Of a stretch of 64,000 nt of DNA, positions 10,629 through 52,443 are shown piece by piece. The position numbers and the translations under genes are program-made. The notes under the pieces were generated by a model that saw only the letters and a program-made list of their open reading frames with translations, was not told where the DNA came from and did no database searches. The first letter of the stretch is position 1; each line of letters opens with the position of its first letter. Location of the stretch: the NCBI RefSeq assembly GCF_058153355.1, contig NZ_CM177019.1; one strand, written 5' to 3'.

Positions 10629-11525
10629 TTATACAAAAAGTGACAAAAAAGATCGGGTTTGATCACAGTCAGGGATCCCGGCACGCCCACCGGGACGCGT
10701 GCATTTTAACGCCGCCACACCGCTGGCAAAGCGGACGGAATCCGCTAAATCTCCACCTGTTGCCAGCGCCACCGCCAATGCGCCGTGAAAAACATCGCCC
10801 GCACCGGTAGTATCTACCACATCAACTTTGAAAGCTGGCTGATGCTGTCGCCCGCCATTCTCCAGCCAGTCACAGCCTGCACTGCCCTGAGTAACATAGA
10901 CATGTCCATTTGTGAGCGTTTGTGCCTGTTTTAGGGCACTCGCCATCTCTTTCACGCCCGTTAGCCGCGCCAGACCCGGTTCTGAAAAAGCAGCATGATC
11001 GCTTAACGCCACCAGCTCACTGATATCCTGCGGCGTAATATCACCGTCCAGCACGGTCATCACGCCCACCTGCCGCGCCAGAGTGAAGGCTTTTTTTGCG
11101 CCGTCGTGCCAGCGTACATCTGCCAGCACCACGTCCCACTGAGAGAAATCAATTTCCTCCAACCACTCTGCGTCAGGCAGCAGGTCCGGGCTGGGATAGT
11201 TAATGATGATTCGCTCGCCTTTGGCATCCACCATGATGGCGGATTGCGAAGATTTCGCCTGGTTATACCGCTTGGTGTAACGGGTGTTAACGCCCCAGGA
11301 TTCCAGCTCTGCCAGCAGGCTGTTTCCCGTGTCGTCGTCACCGACGCGACCAATAAAATCGACCTGCGCACCTAGTCTGGCCGCCGCAACTGCTGCTGTA
11401 GCCGCTGGCCCGCCGCCGACTTCCGTATAATTTTTCGCCACGTATTTACCGCTCTCCGTCGGCAATCCTTCCACGTAATAGATGCGATCCATCACGGTAA
11501 TTCCTACACAAGCAACACGAATCAT
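10629..11525 (-). CDS. yihV: PfkB-family sugar kinase (6-deoxy-6-sulfofructose kinase)
   Basis: Ribokinase/PfkB motifs (GGxxAN near N-terminus, DTTGAGD near C-terminus); sulfoquinovose cluster context. Confidence 0.85.
   Translation of the reverse strand: MIRVACVGITVMDRIYYVEGLPTESGKYVAKNYTEVGGGPAATAAVAAARLGAQVDFIGRVGDDDTGNSLLAELESWGVNTRYTKRYNQAKSSQSAIMVDAKGERIIINYPSPDLLPDAEWLEEIDFSQWDVVLADVRWHDGAKKAFTLARQVGVMTVLDGDITPQDISELVALSDHAAFSEPGLARLTGVKEMASALKQAQTLTNGHVYVTQGSAGCDWLENGGRQHQPAFKVDVVDTTGAGDVFHGALAVALATGGDLADSVRFASGVAALKCTRPGGRAGIPDCDQTRSFLSLFV
10634..10651. promoter_or_regulatory. AAAAAGTGACA-type repeat, candidate CsqR operator (copy 1)
   Basis: caaaaagtgacaaaaaag lies between the yihW start and yihV stop; the same core recurs twice in the yihV-yihU divergent region. 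Confidence 0.35.
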
Positions 11526-11575
11526 GGTCATTCCTTAAGCATTTTGGGATGCGTTCATTTTAATTTCATCAATTG

Positions 11576-11677
11576 TTTAAAAAGTGACGGCTGTCAATTT
11601 TTTGACGATAAATTACAAATACGATCAAAAACAGACAAGCAAGACATGTCATAAATGACAAAAAGTGACATCACTGT
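11576..11677. promoter_or_regulatory. yihV-yihU divergent promoter region with two AAAAAGTGAC repeats and palindromes (candidate CsqR operators)
   Basis: ttaaaaagtgacggctgtcaattttttgac (palindromic TGACGGCTGTCA and GTCAAttttttGAC) and atgacaaaaagtgacatcactgt (palindrome GACATGTC nearby); AT-rich 160-bp divergent intergenic region. Confidence 0.4.
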
Positions 11678-11692
11678 ATTCAGGAGAGGGTT

Positions 11693-12589
11693 ATGGCAGC
11701 AATCGCGTTTATCGGTTTAGGGCAAATGGGTTCGCCAATGGCGAGCAATTTATTGCAGCAAGGGCATCAACTTTGCGTCTTCGATGTGAATGCCGAAGCC
11801 GTACAGCATCTGGTAGACAAAGGGGCGACTCCCGCTGCTAACCCAGCGCAGGCCGCTAAAGGTGCCGAATTTATCATTACCATGTTGCCGAATGGCGATC
11901 TGGTGCGTCACGTGTTGTTCGGTGAAAACGGTGTCTGTGAGAGCTTATCTTCCGATGCGCTGGTCATTGATATGTCGACCATCCACCCCCTGCAAACCGA
12001 TAAATTGATTGCTGATATGCAGGCCAGAGGCTTCAGCATGATGGATGTTCCGGTTGGCCGTACTTCCGCAAATGCCATTACCGGTACTCTGCTCCTGTTG
12101 GCTGGCGGCACTGCTGAACAAGTTGAACGCGCCACGCCGATCCTGATGGCGATGGGCAGCGAGTTGATCAACGCGGGCGGTCCGGGCATGGGGATCCGCG
12201 TTAAGCTTATCAACAACTACATGAGCATCGCGCTCAATGCGTTGTCGGCAGAAGCCGCCGTTTTGTGCGAAGCCCTCAATCTTCCCTTCGATGTTGCCGT
12301 CAAGGTAATGAGCGGTACTGCCGCCGGTAAAGGCCACTTCACCACTTCCTGGCCGAACAAAGTCCTCAGTGGAGATCTCTCTCCCGCCTTCATGATCGAT
12401 CTTGCCCATAAGGATCTTGGCATCGCCCTCGATGTCGCCAACCAGTTGCATGTGCCGATGCCGCTGGGCGCCGCCTCACGAGAGGTTTATAGCCAGGCGC
12501 GCGCAGCAGGTCGCGGTCGCCAGGACTGGTCCGCCATTCTGGAGCAGGTCCGTGTCAGTGCCGGGATGACTGCCAAAGTAAAAATGTAA
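11693..12589 (+). CDS. yihU: 3-sulfolactaldehyde reductase (NAD-binding beta-hydroxyacid dehydrogenase family)
   Basis: 298 aa, N-terminal Rossmann motif [10 protein letters not shown]; synteny. Confidence 0.9.
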
Positions 12590-12612
12590 CGACTGGATAA
12601 AGGAATAAATGA

Positions 12613-13491
12613 ATGAATAAGTACACCATCAACGACATTACGCGCGCATCGGGCGGTTTTGCCATGCTGGCAGTCGATCAGCGCGAAGCCATGCGCATGA
12701 TGTTTGCCGCGTCTGGCGCACCCGCTCCAGTAGCCGATAGCGTTTTAACTGATTTCAAAGTTAACGCCGCGAAGACGCTTTCACCTTATGCATCGGCGAT
12801 TCTGGTAGATCAACAATTCTGCTACCGCCAGGTGGTTGAGCAAAACGCGATTGCCAAAAGTTGCGCCATGATTGTCGCCGCCGATGAGTTCATCCCTGGC
12901 AACGGTATTCCGGTAGATAGCGTAGTCATTGACCGCAAAATCAACCCGCTACAAATCAAACAAGACGGTGGCAAAGCCCTGAAACTACTGGTGCTGTGGC
13001 GTAGTGATGAAGATGCGCAGCAACGCCTGGATATGGTGAAAGAGTTCAATGAACTGTGCCACTCACACGGTCTGGTGAGCATCATTGAGCCAGTCGTCCG
13101 CCCACCGCGTCGTGGCGATAAATTCGATCGCGAACAAGCGATCATCGATGCCGCTAAAGAGCTGGGCGACAGTGGCGCTGACCTCTACAAAGTTGAAATG
13201 CCGCTTTATGGCAAAGGTCCGCAACAAGAGCTTCTCAGTGCTTCACAACGTCTGAATGACCATATCAATATGCCGTGGGTGATCCTCTCATCCGGCGTCG
13301 ACGAAAAACTGTTCCCGCGTGCCGTACGCGTGGCAATGACAGCGGGTGCATCGGGCTTCCTGGCTGGTCGTGCCGTCTGGGCATCGGTTGTCGGTTTACC
13401 GGACAACGAGCTGATGCTGCGTGACGTTTGCGCACCGAAATTACAACAACTTGGCGATATCGTCGACGAAATGATGGCTAAACGCCGTTAA
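12613..13491 (+). CDS. yihT: 6-deoxy-6-sulfofructose-1-phosphate aldolase
   Basis: 292 aa class I aldolase-like (LacD/FbaB-like) protein; synteny. Confidence 0.9.
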
Positions 13492-13506
13492 GATGAGGAT
13501 ACAAAA

Positions 13507-14748
13507 ATGAAATGGTTTAACACCTTAAGTCACAACCGTTGGCTGGAACAGGAAACCGATCGCATCTTTGATTTTGGTAAAAATTCCGTAGTACCGACTG
13601 GCTTTGGCTGGTTAGGCAATAAAGGGCAAATCAAAGAAGAGATGGGCACCCATCTGTGGATCACCGCCCGTATGTTGCACGTGTATTCCGTTGCTGCGGC
13701 GATGGGTCGACCTGGCGCTTACTCGTTGGTTGATCATGGTATCAAAGCCATGAACGGCGCACTGCGCGATAAAAAATATGGCGGCTGGTATGCCTGTGTC
13801 AATGACGAGGGCGTGGTGGATGCCTCCAAACAGGGCTATCAACATTTCTTTGCCCTGCTGGGTGCCGCCAGTGCCGTCACAACGGGTCACCCGGAAGCGC
13901 GTAAGCTGCTCGATTACACCATTGAAATTATCGAGAAATACTTCTGGAGCGAAGAAGAGCAGATGTGCCTGGAATCCTGGGACGAAGCCTTCAGCAAAAC
14001 CGAAGAGTACCGCGGCGGCAATGCCAATATGCACGCGGTGGAAGCTTTCTTGATTGTTTATGACGTAACGCATGACAAAAAATGGCTGGATCGCGCGATT
14101 CGCGTGGCTTCCGTCATTATCCACGACGTCGCCAGAAATAATCATTATCGCGTTAACGAGCACTTCGATACCCAGTGGAATCCGCTGCCGGATTACAACA
14201 AAGATAACCCGGCGCACCGCTTCCGCGCATTCGGAGGCACGCCGGGCCACTGGATCGAATGGGGCCGTTTAATGCTGCATATCCACGCTGCCCTGGAAGC
14301 CCGTTGCGAACAGCCTCCGGCCTGGTTGCTAGAAGATGCCAAAGGTCTGTTCAACGCTACCGTGCGCGATGCCTGGGCGCCCGATGGTGCCGACGGGATT
14401 GTTTATACCGTTGACTGGGAAGGCAAACCGGTGGTCCGCGAACGTGTGCGTTGGCCTATCGTCGAAGCGATGGGTACGGCCTACGCGCTCTACACCGTCA
14501 CTGGCGATCGCCAGTACGAAACCTGGTATCAGACATGGTGGGACTACTGCATTAAGTACCTGATGGACTACGAAAACGGTTCCTGGTGGCAGGAGCTGGA
14601 TGCGGACAACAAGGTCACCACCAAAGTCTGGGACGGTAAACAGGATATTTACCACCTGCTGCATTGCCTGGTGATCCCGCGTATCCCGTTAGCACCAGGC
14701 CTGGCACCGGCTGTTGCCGCAGGCCTGCTGGACGTTAACGCGAAATAA
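13507..14748 (+). CDS. yihS: Sulfoquinovose isomerase (AGE / N-acyl-glucosamine 2-epimerase fold)
   Basis: 413 aa; synteny with yihT/yihU. Intact, ending 38 bp before the Mu right end. Confidence 0.9.
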
Positions 14749-51540: not shown

Positions 51541-52443
51541 ATGCAAATCACCAACATGCATTGCAGTGGACAAACCGTTTCACTTGCCGCGGGGGATTAT
51601 CACGCGACTATCGTGACGGTTGGTGCTGGTCTGGCTGAATTAACTTTTCAGGGTTGTCATTTAGTCATCCCGCACAAACCCGAAGAGATGCCGCTGGCGC
51701 ATCTGGGTAAAGTGCTTATTCCGTGGCCGAACCGGATCGCCAACGGCTGTTACCGCTATCAGGGACAGGAATATCAGTTACCCATTAATGAACATAGTTC
51801 AAAAGCCGCTATTCACGGGCTGCTTGCCTGGCGAGACTGGCAAATTAGCGAATTAACCGCCACCAGCGTTACCCTGACAGCTTTTCTACCGCCCAGTTAC
51901 GGCTATCCGTTTATGCTGGCTTCGCAGGTTGTTTATTCGCTCAATGCTCGCACGGGCCTTTCCGTTGAGATCGCAAGCCAGAATATTGGTACTGTGACCG
52001 CACCTTATGGTGTGGGTATTCATCCTTATTTAACCTGCAACTTAACATCTGTTGATGACTATCTTTTCCAGCTTCCGGCAGAACAGGTTTATGCCGTCGA
52101 TGAGCACGCAAATCCGACAACGCTTCACCACGTTGATGAGCTGAATTTAAATTTCACGCGGGCGACAAAAATAGCCGCGACAAAAATAGACCATACCTTT
52201 AAAACCGCTAATGATCTGTGGGAAATGACCATTACCCATCCACAGCAGGCGCTGTCGGTGAGTCTTTGTTCCGATCAACCCTGGGTGCAGGTTTATAGCG
52301 GCGAAAAATTACAGCGTCAGGGACTGGCAGTTGAACCTATGAGTTGCCCGCCTAACGCCTTTAATTCAGGTATCGACTTATTATTACTGGAACCAGGAAA
52401 AACGCACCGCCTGTTTTTTAATATTCACGGGCAGCACAATTAA
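51541..52443 (+). CDS. yihR: Aldose 1-epimerase-family protein (sulfoquinovose mutarotase)
   Basis: Start MQITNMH... with RBS AAAGG; the longer 345-aa ORF (from 51406) begins inside Mu left-end DNA and is an artefact. Synteny between yihS and yihQ. Confidence 0.85.
   Translation: MQITNMHCSGQTVSLAAGDYHATIVTVGAGLAELTFQGCHLVIPHKPEEMPLAHLGKVLIPWPNRIANGCYRYQGQEYQLPINEHSSKAAIHGLLAWRDWQISELTATSVTLTAFLPPSYGYPFMLASQVVYSLNARTGLSVEIASQNIGTVTAPYGVGIHPYLTCNLTSVDDYLFQLPAEQVYAVDEHANPTTLHHVDELNLNFTRATKIAATKIDHTFKTANDLWEMTITHPQQALSVSLCSDQPWVQVYSGEKLQRQGLAVEPMSCPPNAFNSGIDLLLLEPGKTHRLFFNIHGQHN

Follow-up and report, generated by a model that had tools for sequence, protein, structure and literature searches.

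Candidate TGACA-based control sites for the sulfoquinovose regulator CsqR around yihV

Three copies of the 10-mer AAAAAGTGAC lie around yihV in the window, i.e. the whole 64-kb stretch of DNA analysed here. We read them, and the longer form AAAAAGTGACA, as parts of a composite, multi-site candidate control region for three CsqR-repressed promoters (csqR, yihV, and yihU), and assign to this reading a probability of roughly one half. As its core, CsqR would most likely recognise TGACA, a pentamer flanked on its 5' side by A-rich sequence, in three arrangements. Copy 2 and its partner would form an inverted pair over the -35 region of yihV; copy 3, with a twin upstream of it, would form a direct repeat of 10 bp covering the proximal starts of yihU; and copy 1 would act as a single strong copy between the csqR -35 and -10 elements.

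The yih cassette and reported CsqR binding

The sulfoquinovose cassette (sulfo-EMP, yih; E. coli type) occupies positions 9810-14748 of the window, in an orientation reversed with respect to MG1655. Its relevant genes and sites are listed in Table 1; yihT and yihS lie downstream of yihU on the plus strand. Gene names are supported by the annotation of near-identical E. coli genomes (csqR, sulfofructose kinase, sulfolactaldehyde reductase). Between yihV and yihU lies a spacer of 167 bp, which shares 97% identity with its counterpart in MG1655 (K-12). CsqR displays an HTH_DeoR domain (Pfam PF08220, 2.6e-23) and a DeoRC domain (PF00455, 1.7e-49), which confirms, in agreement with the annotation, the DeoR-family membership that a preliminary description of this DNA had given to the adjacent regulator YihW/CsqR. 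The recognition-helix segment VSTQTVRRD, most residues of which are invariant in an alignment of 20 CsqR sequences, served as the search pattern for orthologues. No structure of CsqR or of a CsqR-DNA complex was found in the PDB, where the sole match was the DeoR sensor domain 7l6l.

Table 1. Genes and candidate regulatory sites of the yih region, in window coordinates
Feature	Position	Strand	Remarks
csqR (yihW)	9810-10595	-	DeoR-family repressor, 261 aa; annotated as csqR in near-identical E. coli genomes
csqR -10 TATAAA (putative)	10628-10633	-	Overlaps yihV stop; placed from sequence and published TSS
yihV	10629-11525	-	Sulfofructose kinase; csqR promoter and copy 1 within its last 14 codons
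Copy 1, AAAAAGTGACA	10635-10645	+	-13 to -23 of csqR promoter; directly upstream of -10 hexamer
CRP-like site TGTGATCAAACCCGAT	10652-10667	-	Upstream of csqR promoter; perfect left half only; conserved
yihV -10 TAAAAT (putative)	11557-11562	-	Placed from published TSS and sequence
Imperfect palindrome AAAAAGTGAC-GGCT-GTCAATTTTT	11579-11602		Copy 2 and inverted partner; 24 bp; centre 11590.5
Short palindrome GTCAATTTTTTGAC	11593-11606		Overlaps right arm of 24-bp palindrome; in invariant block of spacer alignment
Invariant block GATAAATTACAAATACGATCAAAAACAGACA	11607-11637	+	Degenerate repeats ATAAATTACA and AAAAACAGACA; conserved GATCA; possible -10 TACGAT
Direct repeat TGACAAAAAGTGACA, TGACA-N5-TGACA	11656-11670	+	Includes copy 3 (11660-11670)
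yihU	11693-12589	+	Sulfolactaldehyde reductase; gene 1 of yihUTS operon

According to three reports, CsqR binds the yihU/yihV spacer and its own upstream region as assessed by gSELEX and EMSA, represses the csqR, yihV, and yihU transcription units, is released by sulfoquinovose, and forms cooperative, polymer-like complexes with DNA as seen by AFM and EMSA (PMC8006165, PMC8249747, PMC12608037). The control of yihUTS, yihV, and csqR by CsqR was described by Shimada et al. in 2019 (Microbiology 165:78), as cited in PMC8006165 and PMC8249747. In the accessible literature, up to an EMSA study of 2025, binding is described at the level of fragments; we found there no recognition sequence or consensus for CsqR, and the words "motif" and "operator" are both absent from the text of the 2025 study. 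Copies 2 and 3 lie in the yihU/yihV spacer and copy 1 upstream of csqR, i.e. in the two regions to which CsqR binds experimentally.

Kaznadzey et al. (PMC5816610) mapped transcription starts of yihV at -25/-27, of csqR at -27/-28, and of yihU at -15, -25, -35, -62/-63, and -82/-92. A sigma-70 consensus scan of positions 10500-11800 returned no promoter and promoter elements were therefore placed from these published starts, which map to 11550-11552 for yihV and 10622/10623 for csqR. The sequence TACGAT (11620-11625) is the likely -10 element for the yihU -62/-63 start, judging from the sequence and the published start. All three copies overlap core promoter elements, of the csqR, yihV, and yihU promoters respectively, which are positions where a bound protein could interfere with transcription.

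Clustering and conservation of the three copies

The preliminary description had reported a core occurring three times, near 10638, 11580, and 11660. There are indeed exactly three matches to AAAAAGTGAC in the 64-kb window, all on the plus strand (10635-10644, 11579-11588, and 11660-11669) and all inside 1.05 kb, where dinucleotide shuffles of the window yield 0.12 matches on average. The next base is A in copies 1 and 3, giving AAAAAGTGACA, and G in copy 2; copies 1 and 3 share the 13-mer ACAAAAAGTGACA. As for the frequency of the motif genome-wide, which the preliminary description had named as a possible objection, the 10-mer is not rare, with three occurrences in yih and three elsewhere in a 400-kb sample of MG1655 (∼7.5 per Mb), but its clustering is unusual, since at that rate ∼0.008 copies would be expected in 1.05 kb. 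A relaxed motif, defined as at least four A in five nucleotides, then any base, then TGACA with at most one mismatch, has 30 matches in the 64 kb. Four of these fall in the 167-bp yihU/yihV spacer, where 0.08 are expected (Poisson P ∼1.5e-6), and one upstream of csqR; other equally AT-rich windows of 167 bp have a mean of 0.06 and a maximum of 2.

For comparison, 80 orthologous loci were fetched via the CsqR alignment, of which individual counts use ∼68-74 loci or species. The csqR-yihV/yihU gene arrangement is kept among them, and the candidate sites are kept together with csqR. In 72 loci (1.03 Mb in total), the exact 10-mer occurs 48 times in yihU/yihV spacers and 34 times upstream of csqR, as against 12 times elsewhere, nine of these at one orthologous coding site. 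The spacer contains an 85-bp core, CATTTTAATTTCAnnAAaTGTTTAAAAAGTGAC-nnn-TGTCAATTTTTTGACcATAAATTACAAATACGATCAAAAACAGACA, which hardly changes across genera from Escherichia to Yersinia, Pantoea, and Rahnella, and in which the only part that varies freely is the three-base centre of the palindrome. Motif scanning of orthologous regions, which had been suggested as a check, thus found copy 2 with its partner, copy 1, and the TGACA pair at copy 3 to be strongly conserved, each in its own way.

Copy 2 and its partner form an imperfect palindrome whose arms are complementary at 9 of 10 positions. In the form AAAAAGTGAC-nnnT-GTCAATTTTT the pair is almost invariant in ∼70 orthologous loci; across genera the arms do not change, whereas variation is seen at three of the four bases in the centre. 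Copy 2 itself covers -29 to -38 of the yihV promoter, on the -35 element, and the whole palindrome extends from -29 to -52. The sequence CATTTTAAT around the yihV -10 is nearly invariant in 68 spacers. The two short palindromes of the preliminary description, TGACGGCTGTCA (11585-11596) and GTCAATTTTTTGAC, are both present, but they are not conserved units as written. They were not recovered by a repeat search with a 6-nt seed, and with arms of only 4-5 bp neither is significant by itself. Combined with copy 2 they make up the 24-bp imperfect palindrome, which is more informative.

Copy 1 is 40 bp upstream of the csqR ATG (10595). The three copies had been described as flanking yihV, which holds for copies 2 and 3 in the yihV/yihU spacer but not for copy 1, which is inside the last codons of yihV (stop codon at 10629-10631). 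Over the last 14 codons of yihV, third-position conservation is 0.86, compared with a mean of 0.57 for codons 1-280, which ranks first among 285 windows. Upstream of csqR, the sequence CATTTTATACAAAAAGTGACAaAAAAGA is kept without codon wobble, and the block CATTTTATAC at the csqR -10 is nearly invariant among orthologous loci. Copy 1 is present in most of 74 loci and has been lost in Yersinia, Serratia, and Hafnia. In Dongshaea marina (Aeromonadales), whose CsqR is 68% identical, the palindrome of the spacer reads AGTGAC-GAA-TGTCA, and the csqR-proximal site AAACTGACA, which adjoins the csqR -10, keeps TGACA and not GTGA.

Copy 3 belongs to a direct repeat, which is found 23-37 nt ahead of the yihU ATG, over the published -25 and -35 starts, and corresponds to +26 to +40 relative to the yihU -62 start. 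This yihU-proximal segment is poorly alignable. In 73 species it nevertheless contains 108 TGACA on the plus strand, compared with ∼5 expected, almost always paired 10 bp apart, and in the spacers of 23 genera no other 5-mer, those made of A and T alone excepted, is as enriched as TGACA. Of 72 loci, 44 carry TGACA-N5/6-TGACA in the spacer, as compared with four matches elsewhere in the 1.03 Mb. The bases between the two pentamers vary (AAAAA, CGATG, AAATA, and others), and the base preceding them may be A, G, or T. Because TGACA and its 10-bp twin are conserved amid variable neighbours, the exact 10-mer is not the conserved unit at copy 3. The motif as originally written has to be modified accordingly: what is conserved is TGACA in 10-bp direct repeats. 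Copy 3 is in fact the second half of TGACA-N5-TGACA, the conserved core being TGACA rather than GTGA or the A-tract. A 10-bp phasing of the array is weakly supported, both by autocorrelation over the whole spacer (z ∼2 at d = 9-10) and by the 16 of 22 positions at which the copy-1 region is identical to the invariant block (p ∼0.05). Because of this, and because the quantisation of distances stems partly from the choice of which member of a TGACA pair is used, a phased array is no more than a suggestive reading.

The central palindrome, the ChIP-exo peak, and alternative readings

The palindrome of copy 2 could primarily be a class II CRP site shared by back-to-back promoters, activating yihV and possibly yihU from its -62 start, a reading that is compatible with CsqR binding over or beside it. 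Class II CRP sites have the consensus AAATGTGATCTAGATCACATTT and are centred near -41.5. The palindrome resembles them in its GTGA-N6-TCA pattern, its A/T flanks, and its position: the centre lies at -40.5 of the yihV promoter, and its distances to the yihV start (11550) and to the yihU -62 start (11631) are equal, 40.5 bp each. Scored with an approximate CRP matrix built from 23 sites (training range 2.8-20.8 bits, median 13.5), AAAAGTGACGGCTGTCAATTTT reaches 8.6 bits and ranks 16th of ∼64,000 positions in the window, and with the same approximate matrix the palindrome has a median score of 8.6 and a maximum of 11.9 bits (in Enterobacter) across 70 species. A symmetric GTGA-N6-TCAC is found in Budvicia, Limnobaculum, Leminorella, and Edaphovirga. 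Moreover, CRP has been reported to bind both the yihU/yihV fragment and the region upstream of csqR, where a conserved CRP site was described, and to activate the yihV promoter on lactose (Kaznadzey et al., PMC5816610). The corresponding CRP-like site upstream of csqR, TGTGATCAAACCCGAT, scores 4.6 bits with our approximate matrix.

Several features of the palindrome nevertheless go beyond, or fall short of, what CRP needs. Compared with the 22-bp CRP pattern TGTGA-N6-TCACA, the half-sites match at 4 of 5 positions on the left and 3 of 5 on the right, where TCAAT is without the second C that is critical for CRP. Invariance also extends to the C that follows GTGA and to the TG that precedes TCA, which complete the TGACA/TGTCA that is also seen in copies 1 and 3. 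Those two copies do not match the CRP matrix (at most 1.1 bits) and have no partner half-site at N6, and the G of GTGA is not conserved at copy 3. With a matrix that is itself approximate, we hold the view that the palindrome is primarily a CRP site as a tentative alternative, somewhat short of probable. Co-regulation by CRP is possible in any case, by analogy with many sugar operons.

A second alternative is that the primary CsqR operator is the invariant block at 11607-11637, the AAAAAGTGACA copies being A-tracts or -35-like elements of the promoters or sites of another factor. YihW ChIP-exo produced one dominant peak, at 4071641-4071681 in U00096.2, with a signal-to-noise ratio of 168 (PMC8464067). 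Kaznadzey et al. (PMC5816610) put the yihV start, which precedes the ATG by 25 nt, at 4071737; with the ATG at 4073739 in NC_000913.3, the offset from U00096.2 to NC_000913.3 is 1977, and the peak corresponds to 11606-11646 of the window. It therefore falls on the invariant block, in the interval separating copy 2 from copy 3, with no exact copy inside. The block is also the most invariant stretch of the spacer and is retained even in the divergent short-cassette group. The word GATCA(AA) is common to the block and the csqR upstream region, both being kept in Dongshaea. On the other side, the csqR upstream fragment binds CsqR, and the longest words that it shares with the spacer contain AAAAAGTGAC, up to ACAAAAAGTGACA. 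Furthermore, the block itself can be read as degenerate copies of the TGACA unit, and a pair of ChIP-exo borders in a large oligomeric complex need not mark the site of highest affinity. We consider it unlikely, on balance, that the block alone is the primary operator. Readings of the block and of CTGTAT as IHF or LexA sites were dropped by eye; consensus positions mismatch.

The invariant-block reading also draws on the raiA promoter of MG1655, which contains a 15-mer identical to TGACAAAAAGTGACA, adjoining a strong CRP match (approximate matrix). Neither gSELEX nor ChIP-exo lists raiA among the targets of CsqR, so that even a perfect direct repeat does not suffice for binding. The motif thus does not predict CsqR binding elsewhere: raiA carries it and is no reported target, and at ssuE and glpA, where YihW ChIP-exo gave minor peaks, the sequence contains no TGACA repeat, so that these peaks are uninformative. 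On these sequence comparisons, the TGACA motif would at best be necessary for CsqR binding, and not sufficient.

The identical 15-mer at raiA would be accounted for if the TGACA direct repeats were bound by another regulator that recognises tandem pentamers or heptamers, such as a response regulator of the PhoB/OmpR type. The Pho box bound by PhoB consists of tandem CTGTCAT units with a period of 11 bp. On the opposite strand, the yihU-proximal repeat reads TGTCA-N5-TGTCA, close to this unit, and shares with the Pho box tandem TGTCA units on one strand and A/T-rich spacers. However, a Pho box was rejected on its period, since the units recur every 10 bp both in the window and in almost every species (an 11-bp period occurs in two Serratia loci only). 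The repeat also does not have a -10 element 10 bp downstream of it, and phosphate plays no part in the pathway. Nor is any regulator of the PhoB/OmpR type reported at the locus in the accessible literature, whereas CsqR gives the strong ChIP-exo signal in the spacer and the direct repeat is found alongside csqR in every genus examined. Binding by a regulator of this kind is very improbable.

Finally, chance recurrence in AT-rich intergenic DNA can practically be dismissed: although one of 100 dinucleotide shuffles reached three copies and the background rate in MG1655 is appreciable, all copies fall within two regulatory regions, AT-rich control windows contain hardly any relaxed matches, and the sites are conserved across genera, including at synonymous positions.

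A model for CsqR binding and its relation to known systems

In the composite model that we favour, the individual TGACA units would be weak, and degenerate units (TTACA, AGACA) would occupy the invariant block that separates copy 2 from copy 3. CsqR, an oligomerising winged-helix protein of the DeoR type, would bind the cluster cooperatively and cover the whole spacer. Bound CsqR would exclude RNA polymerase, and probably CRP too, its oligomers occluding the -35 element of yihV, the core of the yihU promoters, and the promoter spacer of csqR. CsqR would be released once sulfoquinovose binds to its DeoRC domain. We infer in this model a base-specific contact at TGACA, cooperativity across these particular sites, and occlusion as the mechanism of repression.

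The model fits the polymer-like complexes, the status of CsqR as a regulator with a single target, and a ChIP-exo peak in the middle of the array. The original proposal, that the copies are CsqR operators, draws support from their location in CsqR-bound regions, their conservation, and their overlap with promoters. It is weakened by the position of the ChIP-exo peak, by the fit of the palindrome to CRP, and by the raiA 15-mer. Our confidence in the composite model is not higher because the ChIP-exo interval excludes the exact copies, and because of the raiA 15-mer, the CRP fit, and the weak phasing; the losses of copy 1 also count against it.

A bolder version is doubtful. It would make the palindrome, placed midway (40.5 bp) between divergent starts, a switch shared by competing CRP and CsqR, with phased TGACA pentamers, one of them in the coding end of yihV, nucleating a CsqR filament that closes three promoters, and with a CsqR recognition code that was previously undescribed.

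The organisation proposed here can be compared with that of other E. coli regulators of the DeoR family. DeoR, GlpR, and AgaR act through multiple operators, to which they bind as oligomers and cooperatively, at divergent promoters, and repress their own genes. CsqR shares with them the HTH_DeoR and DeoRC domains, several weak candidate operators over divergent promoters, and repression of its own gene. Unlike in those systems, the candidate core is TGACA, an inverted pair is mixed with 10-bp direct repeats, and one candidate operator is inside the coding end of the upstream gene. With respect to class II CRP promoters, the copy-2 palindrome differs by its poor right half-site and by the extra invariant positions that make TGACA.

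If the composite model is true, it would explain why CsqR has a single target, the weak sites working only as a cooperative cluster, and why synonymous sites are frozen in the last codons of yihV, and it would reveal the way in which the yih locus combines signals from CRP and CsqR. Its practical value is that of a concrete and testable operator model, with TGACA repeats, a central palindrome, and a site in the end of yihV.

The CsqR-yih regulatory system is already known, and the refinement at the level of the motif is incremental. The region matches that of E. coli K-12 in its genes, their order, the two bound regions, the cooperative repressor released by sulfoquinovose, and the 97% identical spacer, and is therefore no new system. 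Compared with the accessible literature on CsqR of K-12, what is added here is candidate TGACA repeats at nucleotide resolution and the promoter geometry. The candidate core TGACA, the symmetric placement of the palindrome, and the apparent synonymous-site constraint that the csqR promoter and candidate operator would place on the end of yihV would be new with respect to that literature. The cassette of the window does differ from that of K-12 in being split after yihS: a Mu-like prophage of 36.7 kb is inserted 39 bp past the yihS stop codon, ahead of yihR, and separates yihUTS from yihR.

Constraint at the csqR promoter and a second conserved word

The coding end of yihV houses the csqR promoter, the TGACA-containing copy 1 and a CRP-like sequence (TGTGATCA), and the inferred −10 hexamer of this promoter shares bases with the stop codon of yihV. 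In a comparison of 62 species, synonymous changes are nearly absent from the final 14 yihV codons, with a conservation of 0.86 versus a mean of 0.57 for codons 1-280, the top value of 285 windows. A second conserved word, GATCA, which includes a Dam GATC site, is found both in the invariant block of the yihU/yihV spacer and upstream of csqR. At both places, the Dongshaea marina locus (L083) has TGATCAC (about 4957-4963 and 5927-5933). Possible roles for the conserved GATCA are half of a CRP site, a portion of the CsqR site, or an element sensitive to methylation.

Coordinates of features in the window
Feature	Position	Sequence	Remark
3′ end of yihV	10629-10670
GATCA upstream of csqR	10661-10665	GATCA
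GATCA in invariant spacer block	11623-11627	GATCA
Mu-like prophage	14787-51506		complete; 36,720 bp
Mu right end	starts 14787	TGAAGCGGCGCACGAAAAACGCGAAAG
Mu left end	ends 51506	...CAAGTGAATCAATACA
Target duplication	14782-86 and 51507-11	CCGGG	5 bp; both sides of prophage

TGACA-type repeats in short-cassette loci and elsewhere in MG1655

Seven loci are of the short-cassette type (L079, L070, L071, L075, L077, L078, and L081), with CsqR identities of 70-73%. The A/T tracts of the palindrome are eroded in all seven, and the yihU-proximal TGACA units are inverted (TGTCA on the yihU strand) in L079, L071, L077, and L081, with L079 having three copies. For the Nissle-type cassette, weaker binding and no SQ induction have been reported (PMC12608037).

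The 15-mer at window 11656-11670, TGACAAAAAGTGACA, recurs unchanged in the raiA promoter of MG1655 (L090 37055-37069; NC_000913.3 2,737,055-2,737,069), about 100 bp upstream of raiA, with a chance expectation of <0.01 in the 400 kb of MG1655 sampled. There, it overlaps a TTGACA, and 3 bp separate its end from a strong CRP match (15.1 bits with an approximate matrix). raiA is absent from the CsqR targets reported in the gSELEX and ChIP-exo lists. In addition, TGTCAC, GTGACA, and TGACAA words, including one exact AAAAAGTGAC, cluster in the feaR-feaB spacer of MG1655 (L088 47400-47480), showing that one or more regulatory regions unrelated to yih also use GTGACA-type repeats.

A prophage in the cassette and the probable origin of the yih allele

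The Mu-like prophage, in which Pfam identifies Mom, a Gin-type invertase, and tail-fibre and baseplate genes, is inserted 39 bp past the yihS stop codon, ahead of yihR (ATG at 51542). The sulfoquinovose cassette is therefore split, and yihR and the genes beyond it are probably cut off from the yihU promoter.

Window 9800-12700 has counterparts in 4,035 E. coli genomes. A few of these match it at 99% identity, and 3,336 at only 90-95%. The CsqR it encodes shares 99% identity with the Escherichia whittamii protein. A divergent Escherichia lineage is a probable source of the window, or else the yih allele is recombinant. CsqR residues 52-261 are also encoded, with 100% identity to the window protein, by an 885-bp contig assigned to 'Bacillus coahuilensis m4-4' (L060, NZ_ABFU01000106.1), which is almost certainly an enterobacterial contamination of that assembly.
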